This document shows positions 16,442 to 32,295 of a stretch of DNA of 64,000 nt, one piece after another. This stretch comes from an uncultured Verrucomicrobiae bacterium (GTDB lineage Bacteria; Verrucomicrobiota; Verrucomicrobiia; Chthoniobacterales; UBA10450). The stretch lies in NCBI GenBank assembly GCA_963756875.1, contig CAVWPA010000001.1, positions 512,001 through 576,000 of the forward strand. Reading direction: 5' to 3'. The translations under genes and the position numbers were made by a program. Positions within the stretch are counted from its first letter, which is position 1. Every line of letters begins with the position of its first letter. The notes beneath the pieces are model-generated. The model saw nothing but the letters and a program-made list of their open reading frames with translations, was not told where the DNA came from and made no database searches.

Positions 16442-16792
16442 TCATTTCCTCATCATCGCGTCCCGCCGGGCTTTTCGCGTAAAAGGCTGCGCCTCACGCG
16501 ACTCGTTAAAAGGCTCCGGGCCTTTAGTTCGGAGGGGATATTTCGCGAAATAATTCCGCAGTTGCGAGCGCAAGAATCTTCGACTTCCACCGCTTTCTAA
16601 GTATCGCTCGCGACCAAATGCATCAGCTTCTTCGGTATAGGCCTCATAATGGATCAGATTCCATGGACCTCGAAAGCTCGTAGCCTGCACTGCTCCGCTT
16701 TTATGTTCGTTCAGCCGTCGTCGCAAGTCGGTCGAGAATCCGATGTACAGTCCCGCATCTCGTGCTGAATGAAGCAAGTAGACGTAAAACAT
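16442..16792 (-). CDS. Stand-alone GIY-YIG nuclease
   Basis: FYVYLL..LYIGFSTDLRRRLNEH..T..RGPW..YEAY..A..RERYLESG. Confidence 0.92.
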   Translation of the reverse strand: MFYVYLLHSARDAGLYIGFSTDLRRRLNEHKSGAVQATSFRGPWNLIHYEAYTEEADAFGRERYLESGGSRRFLRSQLRNYFAKYPLRTKGPEPFNESREAQPFTRKARRDAMMRK

Positions 16793-27714: not shown

Positions 27715-28194
27715 GTGTCCGAATCGAAGCAAAATCTCCTCCAGCTCTATCGCTTTTGTTTTTTGATGCTGGCCGACGCGAGCAAGGCGGAGGAGGTTTT
27801 TCACGCTACGCTGCGACAAGCCGCACAGAATTCAGCGGCGGGCGAACCTCCTCGCGATCGCCTGTGGTTTTTCCGCGATGCCCGCTGGCGATGTCTGGAA
27901 GCTGGCGAACAAGGTCTGCAGGCTGAAGATGTCGAACTGGAGGAGGAGCAGATCGCTCCCTCGGCGTCGGCGCAAATCGAAAAACTTGAGCCGGCACAAC
28001 TCGCGATCTGGATTGCCGCTGCCTCGGATCCCCAGCGAACAGCGCTGGCCCTGTTCTATCTCGATGAATTCAATGACGCGGAATTGCTTTCGGTCTGCGA
28101 ACTGAAACCGGTGGAGCTGGCAAAATTGCTCTCGGAAGGACGCCATCAATTTCAAGCCTGGCTCAATGCGACAATGCCCGTTACCGAGACATGA
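27715..28194 (+). CDS. Divergent ECF sigma-factor-like protein
   Basis: LYRFCFLML..AEEVF (region 2-like), QRTALALFYLDEF (region 4-like); coupled to a downstream TM protein. Confidence 0.6.
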   Translation: MSESKQNLLQLYRFCFLMLADASKAEEVFHATLRQAAQNSAAGEPPRDRLWFFRDARWRCLEAGEQGLQAEDVELEEEQIAPSASAQIEKLEPAQLAIWIAAASDPQRTALALFYLDEFNDAELLSVCELKPVELAKLLSEGRHQFQAWLNATMPVTET

Positions 28195-28958
28195 TTGCCT
28201 TGTCCCGCCGCCACCGTTTGTTTCTCCAATTCGCCCCGATCAGTGAGGAGCGGGTGCGGGATCGCCGCATGCGAGTTGCGTTGCACCGCGCGCGCAAGGA
28301 CGAAGGATTTGCCGCGCAACAGAATTTCGATCGCGCGGTTGCGGCGCTCGTTCGCGCGATTCCGATCCCTCAGCCAATCACAGATTGGGTTCCGGAAGAG
28401 ACGCTCATTTCGGCGCCACAACGCCCATGGAAAAAATACGCGCAACACCCGGCGATTGTCGCCACCGCGATCGCCGTTGCGGTGATTGCCGGTGTCTTCG
28501 TGTTTCATGTGATCGACAATCTGAATGATTTTCCAAACGAAGATACCGCGCGAAAGTTGCTGGGAGTGGCAAGCTCGACACGGTCACTGGTTCTTGATCC
28601 GGTGAAGACGGATGCCGGAGAACTCGGCGATCTCTTCTTCATGAAATATCGGCTGGAACATTATGATGTGCCGCCCGAGTTCGCCGACTTTCGGACATTG
28701 GGTTACCGCGTTTTTCCCGATGAGGAAGCGCAGCGGGTCGCCCAGATCTGGGTAGTCGAGAAGCGCATGCAGTTTTTTATTTTTCGAGCCGAGAAAGACC
28801 CCAAAACAGGCGCGCCGCGGGAATTTTCAGGCTGGCGTTATGTGGAGCAGGAAGGATGGGCCGGCGTGATCGAAGAGCGCAACGGCATTTGTTTTATGGC
28901 GGCCATGCGCGGGCGGGAAAAAGATCTGGCGCCGTATATCGCGAAAAAAAGCGATTAG
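28191..28958 (+). CDS. Single-TM putative anti-sigma factor
   Basis: ATGA overlap with the upstream sigma-like gene, cytoplasmic N-terminus, one TM, C-terminal domain. Confidence 0.55.
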   Translation: MIALSRRHRLFLQFAPISEERVRDRRMRVALHRARKDEGFAAQQNFDRAVAALVRAIPIPQPITDWVPEETLISAPQRPWKKYAQHPAIVATAIAVAVIAGVFVFHVIDNLNDFPNEDTARKLLGVASSTRSLVLDPVKTDAGELGDLFFMKYRLEHYDVPPEFADFRTLGYRVFPDEEAQRVAQIWVVEKRMQFFIFRAEKDPKTGAPREFSGWRYVEQEGWAGVIEERNGICFMAAMRGREKDLAPYIAKKSD

Positions 28959-29030
28959 ATTCGGCTTTGGGAAAGCCGTGCAGGGCCAACGTTGACTCTT
29001 CGTCATAGGCCATTCAACTTTGTGCCGCCT

Positions 29031-29122
29031 GCCAGGGTGGCTCAGCGGCCTGCTCGCGAAGACTTTCGGAGTAGAGCAGCCCGAAAGTATTCGGGGTTGG
29101 TCGCGCGGAGTTTTGCCTGGTA
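29031..29122 (+). pseudogene. Degenerate copy of the adjacent tRNA carrying two hairpin insertions
   Basis: gccagggtggctcagcgg[cctgctcgcgaagactttcgga]gtagagcag[cccgaaagtattcgggg]ttggtcg...cctggta. Confidence 0.75.
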
Positions 29123-29141
29123 TTCTTTGAACGAAATTGTT

Positions 29142-29213
29142 GCCAGGGTAGCTCAGCGGTAGAGCAGGGGACTCATAAGCCCTTGGTCGGGAGTTCAATT
29201 CTCCCCCCTGGCA
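29142..29213 (+). tRNA. tRNA with CAT anticodon (probably Ile2/lysidine type; elongator Met not excluded)
   Basis: Acceptor stem GCCAGGG/CCCTGGC+A, D arm GCTC-AGCGGTA-GAGC, loop CTCATAA, T arm GGGAG-TTCAATT-CTCCC. Confidence 0.92.
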
Positions 29214-29224
29214 CTTTTTACGCA

Positions 29225-29467
29225 ATGGCTTGGGTTTACATTATTCGCGGTTCGTCAGGCCGACACTACATTGGTTCCACAGTCGATCTCGACGCGCGAT
29301 TCGCCCAGCATTTACGTGGTCATACTGCCACAACCAAGCGACTCGGCGAGATGCTTGAGATCGTCGCAAAAAAAGAATTTCCAACTTTGGCTGAAGCTCG
29401 AAAAATCGAGCGCTCATTGAAACGAAAAAGGAATCCAAAGCTCGCAATTTATCACTTGCGGCAGTAG
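29225..29467 (+). CDS. Minimal GIY-YIG nuclease, array copy 1 (80 aa)
   Basis: WVYII..HYIGST..RFAQH..ARKIERSLK; the TAG stop is part of the tRNA-derived GTAGAGCAG. Confidence 0.9.
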   Translation: MAWVYIIRGSSGRHYIGSTVDLDARFAQHLRGHTATTKRLGEMLEIVAKKEFPTLAEARKIERSLKRKRNPKLAIYHLRQ

Positions 29468-29521
29468 AGCAGCCCCGAAAGCTTTCGGGGTTGGTCGGGA
29501 GTTCAATTCTCCCCCCTGGCA
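29464..29521 (+). repeat. tRNA 3' two-thirds copy with anticodon arm replaced by CCCCGAAAGCTTTCGGGG (repeat 1)
   Basis: gtagagcag-[hairpin]-ttggtcgggagttcaattctcccccctggca, identical to the tRNA outside the hairpin. Confidence 0.92.
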
Positions 29522-29533
29522 GGTTTTTGAATA

Positions 29534-29776
29534 ATGGCCTGGGTTTATATTCTCCGCGGCTCCTTAGGCAGACACTACATCGGTTCCACGGTCGATCTCG
29601 ACGCACGGTTTGCGCAACATTTACGCGGTCATACTGCAACAACCAAGCGACTCGGTGGAAAGCTTGAAATAGTTGCCAAAAAAGAAGTTTCAACGCTGGC
29701 TGAAGCTCGAAAAATCGAGCGCTCATTGAAACGAAAAAGGAATCCAAAGCTCGCAATTTATCACTTGCGCCAGTAG
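29534..29776 (+). CDS. Minimal GIY-YIG nuclease, array copy 2 (80 aa)
   Basis: 74/80 aa identical to copy 1. Confidence 0.9.
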   Translation: MAWVYILRGSLGRHYIGSTVDLDARFAQHLRGHTATTKRLGGKLEIVAKKEVSTLAEARKIERSLKRKRNPKLAIYHLRQ

Positions 29777-29830
29777 AGCAGCCCCGAAAGCTTTCGGGGT
29801 TGGTCGGGAGTTCAATTCTCCCCCCTGGCA
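29773..29830 (+). repeat. tRNA 3' copy with palindrome-replaced anticodon arm (repeat 2)
   Basis: Identical to repeat 1, 309 bp downstream. Confidence 0.92.
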
Positions 29831-29843
29831 CTTTTTTCGAACA

Positions 29844-29867
29844 ATGGCCTGGGTCGATATTCTTCGC
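29844..29867 (+). pseudogene. 5' remnant of a third GIY-YIG copy (MAWVDILR)
   Basis: atggcctgggtcgatattcttcgc at the same offset after the tRNA repeat, then homology is lost. Confidence 0.7.
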
Positions 29868-29984
29868 TTTCGGAGTTCTCCTACCGGGGCTCTTATTGCG
29901 GATCGGCGAGTGTGGATTGCGGATTGCTTTCGGAATTCTCCCCGGTGATTTTTTAATTGGAGCATTCAAAAATAGAACGCGACG

Positions 29985-30012
29985 TTGACAGAGTTCGCAG
30001 CGATCCTATACT
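29985..30012 (+). promoter_or_regulatory. Putative sigma70 promoter for rplI-dnaB
   Basis: TTGACA-N16-TATACT. Confidence 0.6.
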
Positions 30013-32122: not shown

Positions 32123-32295
32123 TCCGGGGAGCGCACGCGCCTCGCGTGCAAATGCCTGTCCGGCCCGGACTTTCGGCACCCTCGCCGAAACGCTCTGTGC
32201 ATTATCAGCGAGAGAGATCCCAGACACTTTTAAAAGTTCGCGCCCCCGAAAGCGTTCGGGGTCGCTAGCACGCGAGGGCGCGTGCGCTCCCCGGA
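32123..32295. repeat. REP/REPIN-like palindromic element (copy D) with two nested mini-hairpins
   Basis: Family arms plus atgcctgtccggcccggac and cccccgaaagcgttcgggg inserts. Confidence 0.88.

Follow-up and report, generated by a model that had tools for sequence, protein, structure and literature searches.

In an uncultured soil Verrucomicrobium (GenBank contig CAVWPA010000001.1, positions 512,001 to 576,000), we analysed a stretch of 64,000 nucleotides (nt), hereafter the window, and identified a methionine transfer RNA (tRNA) array in which an intact tRNA gene is followed by two live copies of a small GIY-YIG nuclease gene and one stub. Behind each full copy lies a partial copy of the tRNA with a palindrome at the position of the anticodon arm. 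The array is real, chance being excluded by far, and all of the elements listed below are present. We hold with moderate confidence that it represents a selfish or semi-domesticated nuclease-plus-hairpin cassette that resides in tRNA genes, is copied and amplified by break-induced homologous recombination, and is expressed from the tRNA promoter. An earlier interpretation of the same DNA, made without database searches (the sequence-only reading), had proposed a very small selfish element homing into a tRNA gene. That interpretation was partly supported: linkage to tRNA genes, copy-number variation, empty sites and the lack of an integrase speak for it, while the palindrome proved not to be a private scar and a tRNA-like RNA is unlikely to be the conserved product of the repeat.

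Organization of the tRNA-Met array

ARAGORN recognized a single tRNA gene in the 64-kilobase (kb) window, the tRNA-Met(CAT) at the head of the array (Table 1), which was also matched by the Rfam tRNA model (29142-29213; 67 bits, E 4.3e-14). The genome holds 39 tRNA genes, two of which carry a CAT anticodon and differ in sequence; the window tRNA-Met is thus single-copy in the assembly. A repeat search of the window returned a direct repeat of 300 nt at a spacing of 309 nt and 89% identity, together with three occurrences of the tRNA 3' part, three of the start of the nuclease open reading frame (ORF), and, at 29030-29048, 19 nt that repeat the beginning of the tRNA. The anatomy claimed in the sequence-only reading, namely a tRNA(CAT), two units of 309 base pairs (bp) with GIY-YIG genes of 80 amino acids (aa), and an eight-codon start of a third gene, was found to be present in full.

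The partial tRNA copies, or tails, comprise the tRNA from GTAGAGCAG through the discriminator, with CCCCGAAAGCTTTCGGGG (an 18-bp palindrome) in place of the anticodon arm GGGACTCATAAGCCC. This replacement of the 15-nt anticodon stem-loop, which had also been claimed beforehand, was seen in both repeats (29473-29490 and 29782-29799), as was the supply of the nuclease TAG stop by the tRNA-derived GTAG in both ORFs. The two 58-nt tails are identical to one another, and their final 31 nt are those of the live tRNA. As DNA, tail 1 folds at -16.8 kcal/mol (z -3.98). When the array was scanned with Rfam the live tRNA alone passed, the tails being assigned to no family. With the hairpin exactly where the anticodon arm would be, none of the partial copies can work as a tRNA; the single array copy retaining that arm would be the one that serves the cell. 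We also considered a split tRNA, formed by the acceptor 3' strand and the GCCTGGG with which the ORF begins, and rejected it, since the codons at Lys-type loci are identical and mismatch the acceptor there.

Upstream of the live tRNA we also identified a decayed older unit, or 5' pseudo-tRNA. Its tRNA 5' half matches at 18/19 nt (29031-29048; repeat family D6, 95%), and its degenerate hairpin (29079-29096) carries one mismatch. Approximately 22 nt within it align to the end of the nuclease unit, and this alignment makes it moderately likely that the piece derives from the end of a nuclease ORF. Two related loci (L005 and L106) complicate this assignment, as a similar but reversed piece lies inside their hairpin loops.

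A single-domain member of a large nuclease family

Both ORFs matched the Pfam GIY-YIG family (PF01541, cut-off 22.6 bits), copy 1 with 52.6 bits (E 5.6e-14) and copy 2 with 48.7 bits (E 9.7e-13). The match covers residues 1-72 of the 80-aa protein, which consists of this single domain with no DNA-binding domain attached. Across 20 aligned family members Y5, Y15, G17, R25, H29 and E62 are invariant; we take the Tyr of GIY, the Tyr of YIG, an Arg, a His or Tyr, and a Glu to be the catalytic-core residues of GIY-YIG nucleases. An AlphaFold model of the protein (predicted local distance difference test score, pLDDT, 89.9) was compared with the PDB using Foldseek, and the top matches were all GIY-YIG proteins: 1zg2, 1ywl, HIGLE, Slx1, the N-terminal domain of UvrC and I-TevI. 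Template modelling (TM) scores were 0.5-0.7 and E-values weak (2e-3 or worse), as expected for 80 residues, and the PDB search returned nothing at E 0.001 or better. NCBIfam yielded partial matches below threshold only (TIGR01453 at 25.1 bits against a cut-off of 56.05, over the first 40 residues), with no Ssn-family (cd10448) model among them, and none of the families in the PADLOC defence-system library was matched by the nuclease.

A profile search of 1.84 billion representative sequences recovered 1,748 proteins at E≤1e-10 and 18,164 at E≤1e-3, which places the protein in a large family of small GIY-YIG proteins. Close relatives, from Verrucomicrobiota, Chthoniobacterales and Candidatus Udaeobacter, are named only as "predicted GIY-YIG superfamily endonuclease".

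The window contains a further small GIY-YIG gene, of another clade, at 16445-16792 (-), encoding 116 aa (PF01541, E 1.5e-12). BLASTP did not align its product with that of the 80-aa ORFs, and neither a tRNA nor a hairpin is near the gene, the closest hairpin being 12.3 kb away. The N-terminus is similar to that of a broken GIY-YIG gene located behind tRNA-Gln in the same genome.

Linkage to tRNA genes and variation in copy number

Related loci were collected by scanning one genome per species, the best 80 of 260 relatives being kept among the loci compared. Removal of 13 loci that duplicate another in the initial 240 nt of their ORF left 92 non-redundant loci (numbered L; genomes are numbered G). 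The unpublished genomes G014 and G007 enter into the genome counts for nuclease and hairpin and into the locus L010, which is identical to the public locus L073 over the compared stretch.

The tRNA association predicted for homologues was borne out. In 81 of the 92 loci an intact tRNA on the same strand ends no more than 25 nt upstream of the first nuclease ORF, with a gap of 5-22 nt, and in seven others it lies 87-202 nt upstream, with extra nuclease-less tails between. The four loci without such an upstream tRNA comprise L098 (ORF upstream of the tRNA), L101 (tRNA 5' half lost), L106 (tRNA on the opposite strand) and L109 (no tRNA). Two tRNA types prevail among the non-redundant loci, Met(CAT) with 54 and Lys(TTT) with 32, accompanied by one Pro(GGG) and one Asn(GTT). 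Copy number, too, proved variable as foreseen: 77 loci possess one nuclease copy, 14 possess two and one possesses three. Decayed copies, frameshifted or truncated, were identified in L013, L018, L023, L024 and L025, in addition to the stub in the window.

Met and Lys cassettes share the same hairpin, combined with the T arm and acceptor strand of the local tRNA, and the Pro and Asn cassettes, which belong to two distant clades, bear other palindromes in the position of the hairpin. The tails of nearly all loci are devoid of the acceptor 5' strand and retain little of the D arm. The stop codon of Met-type loci falls inside the tail. The tail of L090 forms a near-complete cloverleaf in which the hairpin stands for the "anticodon arm", and ARAGORN calls it a tRNA with a 4-nt loop.

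The distribution of the gene is patchy. A nuclease match was obtained in 25/61 genomes of the order, the window's genome counted, and the gene occurs in 23/36 genomes of the same family versus 1/24 from other families of the order. In the window's genome this nuclease clade is confined to the window locus; six of the seven small GIY-YIG genes there lie just downstream of a same-strand tRNA (Met, Met#2, Ala, Gln and Gly). Four of the tRNA-linked cassettes in this genome (G000) are of other clades, at C1:157500-158900, C1:661500-662400, C3:435700-437500 and C1:355400-356300, and sit behind tRNA-Ala(CGC), the second tRNA(CAT), tRNA-Gln(TTG) and tRNA-Gly(GCC). On both sides of each cassette there are direct repeats of 60-120 nt or tRNA 3' pieces, and the tRNA-Gln locus contains a pseudo-tRNA-Gln with the same hairpin as well as a truncated second gene copy.

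Several further loci deserve mention. The tRNA-Lys(TTT) gene, which carries a cassette in 32 related loci, appears unoccupied in the window's genome (G000 C3:999211-999283), where there is no match to the clade at E≤0.01. The Lys-linked cassette of L118 carries another hairpin, which is shorter (CCCCGCAACGCGGGG), and its protein falls on a long branch; two extra nuclease-less units of spacer plus tail separate its tRNA from the ORF. Cassettes of the clade are also present on contigs labelled Candidatus Acidoferrum (Acidobacteriota; L091) and Nitrospirota (L103), which reflects either cross-phylum transfer or mis-binning.

Conservation of the hairpin and its dispersed copies

The hairpin takes the form of arms CCCCGAA/TTCGGGG around a free loop. 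Among 101 scored tails both arms are canonical in 81, one arm varies in eight (one variant being compensatory), and 12 lack the hairpin by pattern, these last including array ends, a nested variant and one alternative hairpin. The loops, by comparison, occur in 22 different forms. That the arms are conserved in sequence, with a single compensatory change among eight variants, favours sequence-specific recognition over structure alone.

The sequence-only reading had suggested that the replaced anticodon arm could make the repeat immune to re-cutting. The palindrome is no private immunity scar; it is the apex of a dispersed family: the pattern CCCCGAANNNNTTCGGGG, allowing one mismatch, has 56 copies in the window's genome versus 1 for the reversed control, and exact copies number 37 versus 0. 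In the window the pattern (≤1 mismatch) was found 5 times versus 0.04 expected. Most genomic copies form the apex of longer intergenic palindromic repeat families distant from tRNAs, and 51/56 are far from any GIY-YIG gene. The remainder include those at 9 nt from both window ORFs, at 100 nt from the gene behind tRNA-Ala, and at 888 nt from the broken gene behind tRNA-Gln. The latter two genes belong to one or more clades other than that of the window, and at the tRNA-Gln locus the hairpin again substitutes for the anticodon arm of a pseudo-tRNA. Homing of the cassette and its immunity to re-cutting are properties that we infer.

Exact copies were also counted per genome, which describes a pattern and is no test, related genomes not being independent. 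All 23 genomes with a strong nuclease match contain the exact hairpin (2-52 copies per genome), as does one of the two with a weak match only (5 and 0 copies). Among genomes without a match it is present in 7/13 from the same family (0-7 copies per genome) and in 0/23 from other families (0 copies).

Two further exact hairpin cores lie in the window outside the cassette, at 2873-2890 and at 32244-32261, the latter between dnaB and the next gene. Both belong to dispersed palindromic repeats, e.g. ...ctgtgaa-hairpin-ctgacacag... nested in a longer palindrome. Nesting of another kind was observed at one Met locus and one Lys locus, where approximately 27 nt (CTCCGAAAGC.TTCGC.AGCAGGAGC.) occupy the canonical loop, in the 5' pseudo-tRNA of L005 and the tail of L106. 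A piece like this insert, in reverse orientation, is present in the window at 29049-29070.

Empty sites, promoter position and expression

From 13 gene-less genomes of the family, five were picked for having few contigs, and all five relatives revealed the empty sites that the sequence-only reading had called for: the promoter is followed by tRNA-Met and then by the next gene, and the hairpin is absent. The upstream gene is the same as in the window in 4/5 of these genomes. For example, the empty locus L032 has its upstream gene in common with the window and its downstream gene in common with the occupied loci L004, L007, L009 and L018, and the empty L036 shares its downstream gene with the occupied L008. 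Past its last tail, an occupied locus reads on in the same way as an empty one does past its tRNA.

A 5' pseudo-tRNA, consisting of a tRNA 5' half, the hairpin, TTGGTCG and an unrelated spacer, precedes the live tRNA in 46 of the 86 loci with sufficient flank. In 20 of these 46 loci a promoter-like motif lies in the 60 nt that precede the 5' pseudo-tRNA, versus 0/46 for the spacers before the live tRNA; where the 5' pseudo-tRNA is missing, such a motif lies before the tRNA in 13/34 loci. Since the ancestral promoter thus precedes the 5' pseudo-tRNA and not the live tRNA, an older tRNA copy has been displaced. Taken together, the empty sites and promoter positions indicate that the outermost tRNA halves mark the place of the original gene, and that two hairpins enclose the live tRNA together with the nuclease gene.

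A strict sigma-70 scan called no promoter inside the array, did not call the promoter-like motif upstream of it, and found no intrinsic-terminator-like site in the array region. The nuclease genes, which have no promoter of their own, are most likely read through from the tRNA promoter and freed by tRNA 3' processing, and co-transcription of this kind fits the anatomy. In a search of sequencing runs none held more than 16% of the sampled words; four runs, two of them RNA or possibly RNA, gave contigs on the conserved tRNA along with scattered pieces of relatives, which speak neither for nor against transcription.

These features could also be accounted for by a role at the RNA level, in which the tail would form or stabilize the 3' end of the nuclease mRNA or would be the source of a tRNA-like RNA, the hairpin would act as an mRNA stabilizer of the repetitive extragenic palindromic (REP) type, and the linkage would reflect processing by RNase P, Z or E rather than targeting of DNA. 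The strict same-strand order and 5-22 nt gap in 81/92 loci, the stop codon within Met-type tails, the lack of a motif in all 46 spacers and of a called promoter in the array, and the cloverleaf of L090 would agree with such a role. RNase P and RNase Z, however, need a substrate bearing the acceptor 5' strand and D arm, and the tails of nearly all loci, lacking the former and most of the latter, are a substrate for neither; for the same reason a tRNA-like RNA from the repeat, as the sequence-only reading had suggested, is unlikely as a conserved role. Together with the sequence conservation of the arms (1 compensatory change among 8 variants) and the missing terminator-like site, this renders an RNA-level explanation improbable.

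Selection, sequence exchange and phylogeny

Between the two window ORFs there are 24 synonymous and 6 non-synonymous changes, corresponding to a synonymous divergence (dS) of 0.60, a non-synonymous divergence (dN) of 0.034 and a dN/dS of 0.06. Both copies are live and under purifying selection. Among other tandem pairs nine gave dN/dS values of 0.05-0.17, one was identical, one reached 0.90 and one was saturated.

The tails tell of sequence exchange. At the ORF divergence of 12.7%, approximately 7 differences would be expected over 58 nt and 0 were seen (0.873^58 ~ 4e-4). The local tRNA variant is strictly nearest for 44/54 Met tails (7 ties, another variant nearer in 3; 26/54 identical to it) and for 34/36 Lys tails (29/36 identical). 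The tRNA-derived arms are therefore kept in step with the live gene, through gene conversion or repeated re-copying. As the live gene offers no template for the hairpin, the hairpin must be maintained by selection on the cassette.

In a quick maximum-likelihood tree of 88 intact copies, built from few columns and with many unresolved forks, 47 Met-linked proteins fall on one side of a branch with a Shimodaira-Hasegawa-like approximate likelihood ratio test (SH-aLRT) value of 84, and the tRNA label changes 4 times versus 31 when shuffled. Tandem copies are mostly sisters, L044 and L107 being exceptions. Distances between nuclease proteins and between adjacent host genes were only weakly correlated across 29 Met loci (Mantel r 0.30, reached by 27/5000 permutations; with 80 residues the distances are noisy). 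The nearest neighbour by nuclease was also the nearest by host gene in 4/29 loci, and host-gene distances of 0.07-0.09 accompany nuclease distances of 0.23-0.28. This pattern suggests a nuclease history of vertical descent mixed with turnover.

Such results bear directly on the alternative that the gene is a domesticated nuclease of the Ssn type, acting on single-stranded DNA (ssDNA) at dispersed hairpins (e.g. restricting or shaping incoming DNA), with the tRNA site serving for strong constitutive transcription, the tails and arrays arising by unequal crossing-over, and no homing involved. Strong and lasting purifying selection on both copies (dN/dS 0.06 at dS 0.60), the 56 hairpins versus 1 in the control with 51 away from any GIY-YIG gene, the positive Mantel correlation with the neighbouring host gene, and a tRNA type almost fixed on the tree all favour it. 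A parallel exists in SsnA, which modulates natural transformation in Neisseria (PMC11893778). Conversely, empty sites in 5/5 gene-less relatives and presence in only 23/36 family genomes, frameshifted and truncated copies in several genomes, and the poor agreement of nuclease with host-gene neighbours are not what domestication would predict. Furthermore, ordinary duplication does not explain why the hairpin lies exactly at the anticodon-arm position in Met, Lys and Gln pseudo-tRNAs. Overall we consider domestication without homing unlikely, while giving it serious weight; both it and an RNA-level role may coexist with the selfish or semi-domesticated cassette that we favour.

Integrase and assembly checks

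Integrated islands are classically recognized by directly repeated 3' parts of a tRNA, and the array could in principle be the remnant of an integrase-driven island or prophage, its tRNA 3' duplications being repeats of the attL/attR type. A domain search identified no integrase, recombinase or transposase domain in the 23 ORFs (at least 110 aa) spanning 13862-46419, approximately 15 kb on each side, in agreement with the sequence-only reading that no integrase is nearby. The repeat unit of 309 bp contains the 80-aa nuclease ORF as its sole gene, the cassette recurs at 92 loci without an island, and its repeats bear a foreign hairpin for the anticodon arm, so that an island remnant is already contradicted and very improbable.

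Tandem repeats are sometimes misassembled, which raises the question of an assembly artefact duplicating a repeat. The ORFs of the two units differ at 12.7% of positions (the 24 synonymous and 6 non-synonymous changes given above), and collapse or duplication by misassembly is therefore not possible. The genome assembles into 3 contigs totalling 2.69 megabases (Mb), a contig from a public soil run, possibly the source sample, matches 29405-29636 across the unit junction without a difference, and two-copy arrays occur in 14 other genomes. An artefact is thus unlikely as the origin of the array, to the point of being scarcely credible, and the duplication can be taken as genuine.

Feature coordinates and flanking genes

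The coordinates of the array and of features immediately around it are collected in Table 1. Short remnants beyond the stub may represent the eroded distal end of the array (29866..29941); their alignment scores are weak. The array is flanked by the housekeeping genes rplI, dnaB, an aminotransferase and a superoxide dismutase. Because rplI is preceded by its own near-consensus promoter, it does not depend on read-through from the array.

Table 1. Features of the tRNA-Met array and its surroundings in the window
Feature	Position	Strand	Basis or remark
Overlapping ORFs, 159 and 255 aa	27715..28194 and 28191..28958	+	Upstream of the tRNA; no Pfam match; the 255-aa ORF is conserved upstream of tRNA-Met in relatives
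Promoter-like motif TTGACT-17 nt-CAACTT with leader	28993..29022	+	Homologous to the promoter directly before tRNA-Met in empty or simple loci; leader like those of L032, L004 and L008
Decayed older unit (5' pseudo-tRNA)	29031..29122	+	tRNA 5' half, ~22 nt, GTAGAGCAG, degenerate hairpin, T arm and acceptor strand with deletions
Intact tRNA-Met(CAT)	29142..29214	+	ARAGORN, Rfam
GIY-YIG nuclease ORF copy 1, 80 aa	29225..29467	+	Starts 10 nt past the tRNA; Pfam match
Tail 1: D-stem 3' strand GTAGAGCAG, hairpin CCCCGAAAGCTTTCGGGG (29473-29490), variable loop, T arm, acceptor 3' strand	29464..29521	+	Last elements equal the live tRNA
GIY-YIG nuclease ORF copy 2, 80 aa	29534..29776	+	93% identical to copy 1; Pfam match
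Tail 2, hairpin at 29782-29799	29773..29830	+	Equals tail 1 over 58 nt
Third nuclease ORF stub, 8 codons	29844..29867	+	Offset as in the full units; repeat family D3; similar truncated last copy in L091
Two decayed remnants, each joining a hairpin 3' half to part of a T arm	29866-29881 and 29926-29941	+	Repeat family D5 and alignments, weak scores
Promoter near consensus, TTGACA-16-TATACT	29985-30012	+	11/12; precedes rplI

Proposed life cycle of the cassette

In the model that we favour, the unit would comprise the 80-residue GIY-YIG gene, the conserved hairpin, and pieces of the host tRNA on either side, i.e. the D-stem 3' strand before the hairpin and the variable loop, T arm and acceptor 3' strand after it. 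The nuclease would bind its own hairpin in single-stranded or extruded DNA, by analogy with Ssn enzymes, and cut nearby. Homologous recombination over the tRNA-derived arms would then repair the break, and in doing so could place the cassette into an unoccupied allele, convert the arms to the local tRNA, or change the number of units by unequal exchange. We infer each of these enzymatic and mechanistic steps. The cassette may be purely selfish, or may by now serve the host as well, for instance by acting on the dispersed hairpin repeats.

A number of observations weigh against this model. Both window copies have been under purifying selection since a dS of 0.6, which is long for a purely selfish duplicate, and a gene useful to the host fits that record equally. 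The positive Mantel r of 0.30 implies a partly vertical distribution, and a tRNA type that is nearly fixed on the tree (4 changes) implies that jumps between tRNA species are rare. The hairpin is present at 5-7 copies in the gene-less family genomes G007, G010, G034 and G036, and may be a general repeat merely captured by the cassette, given its GIY-YIG neighbours of other clades and the 51/56 copies that are remote. The window's genome also has six Y1-transposase-like (Y1_Tnp) matches, which could mobilize hairpin repeats, though their nearest hairpins are 2.6-61.6 kb off and none lies within 2.5 kb. Furthermore, the live tRNA gene remains uncut beside nuclease genes, so that a simple model of tRNA-gene cleavage needs an extra assumption, and the non-independence of related genomes means that genome counts overstate the association.

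A more far-reaching version of the model is possible, although we put it forward tentatively and regard it as doubtful. The cassette would here be a minimal mobile element of approximately 0.3-0.7 kb without transposase or integrase, whose Ssn-like nuclease reads the hairpin that replaces the anticodon arm. It would enter tRNA genes via the conserved D-arm and variable-loop sequences on either side of that arm (GTAGAGCAG ... TTGGT, common to tRNA-Met and tRNA-Lys), bring or preserve a working tRNA so that the host survives, amplify in tandem, and be the source of the REP-like hairpin repeats dispersed in the genome.

If the selfish or semi-domesticated reading is true, the tRNA genes of many uncultured bacteria host a tiny selfish module, an 80-residue nuclease with an 18-bp hairpin, which persists by exploiting those genes of the cell that are conserved best and transcribed most. 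Such a module would join the hairpin-specific ssDNA nucleases of the Ssn type with the amplification of tRNA loci driven by phage SegB, and provide a natural genomic life cycle for Ssn-like enzymes. Odd tRNA fragments and "tRNAs without anticodon" in annotations would be accounted for, and the origin of a dispersed palindromic repeat family might be explained. Pairs of nuclease and hairpin of this size, with stems conserved in sequence, would also be candidate site-specific ssDNA tools. Were the gene domesticated instead, it would represent an unrecognized host function tied to tRNA loci.

Comparison with known systems

In the full-text literature (subscription journals lying outside this scope), we found no description of small GIY-YIG genes abutting bacterial tRNA genes, nor of hairpin-substituted pseudo-tRNAs. 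The nearest solved structures by sequence are two UPF0213 proteins, BH0048 (1zg2) and EF2693 (1ywl), with E-values of 0.0022 and 0.17, which also rank first and second by fold. They resemble the window protein in size and in consisting of a single domain, at weak identity (34% and 25% over approximately 70 residues), and their entries record no function and no tRNA or hairpin context. Integration of islands at tRNA genes requires a tyrosine or serine recombinase, and the unit described here holds the 80-aa ORF only.

A broader likeness exists to REP sequences with their associated tyrosine transposases (RAYT) and to the IS200/IS605 insertion sequences, in that palindromes with a conserved apex, some of them nested, are dispersed in the genome and a small nuclease gene lies between its own hairpins. 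The enzyme here is, however, a GIY-YIG nuclease and not one of the HUH/Y1 type, and no Y1_Tnp match has a hairpin within 2.5 kb. To our knowledge, GIY-YIG enzymes do not rejoin DNA. A comparison of Ssn enzymes and their hairpin repeats to REP/RAYT and IS200/IS605 was likewise drawn by Chenal et al. 2025 (PMC11893778).

The arrays find their closest parallel in SegB, encoded in the tRNA cluster of phages T4 and T6, which cuts inside tRNA genes (Chihara et al. 2026, PMC13096335). Tandem amplification of units of tRNA plus segB requires the catalytic residues of SegB and homologous recombination, and copies can be truncated (PMC13096335). Here too a GIY-YIG gene adjoins a tRNA, and tandem units of partial tRNA plus nuclease end in a truncated last copy; SegB amplification is, by analogy, a direct precedent for such arrays. 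In contrast to the chromosomal, 80-aa units seen here, in old arrays (dS 0.6), SegB is a phage protein that cuts double-stranded DNA, described without a hairpin-substituted pseudo-tRNA. Seg-type homing endonucleases join the nuclease to a DNA-binding domain, and SegB has such a separate domain, whereas the 80-aa protein holds the nuclease domain only. The presence/absence polymorphism at a conserved site that characterizes Seg-type enzymes is found here, with 5/5 sites empty and downstream genes in common at L032 and L036.

With regard to the nuclease and its hairpin, the comparison leads to SsnA, a single-domain GIY-YIG protein of 94 aa that binds its hairpin repeat as ssDNA only, cuts a few nt upstream, and tolerates changes in the loop but not in the stem; its gene lies between copies of its repeat (PMC11893778). 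Chthoniobacter flavus, a member of the same order, is listed with a cd10448 homologue in Supplementary Data 4 of the same study, the SRM motif not being enriched there (PMC11893778). Differences are apparent: the published SRM motif has 0 matches on either strand of 25 loci (76.7 kb), another hairpin flanking the gene here. Also, tRNA is absent from the main text of Chenal et al. (PMC11893778), while in our loci the gene abuts a live tRNA and the hairpin substitutes for the anticodon arm. On the other hand, both are lone GIY-YIG domains without a DNA-binding domain (80 aa here versus 94 aa in SsnA), both genes are bracketed by a hairpin repeat that is also dispersed and enriched genome-wide (56 versus 1 here), and a conserved stem with a free loop is seen both here and in NTS (PMC11893778). 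A further common trait is that different nuclease clades carry different hairpins. Taken together, these comparisons suggest that the Ssn hairpin nucleases and phage SegB are the nearest known relatives of the cassette.

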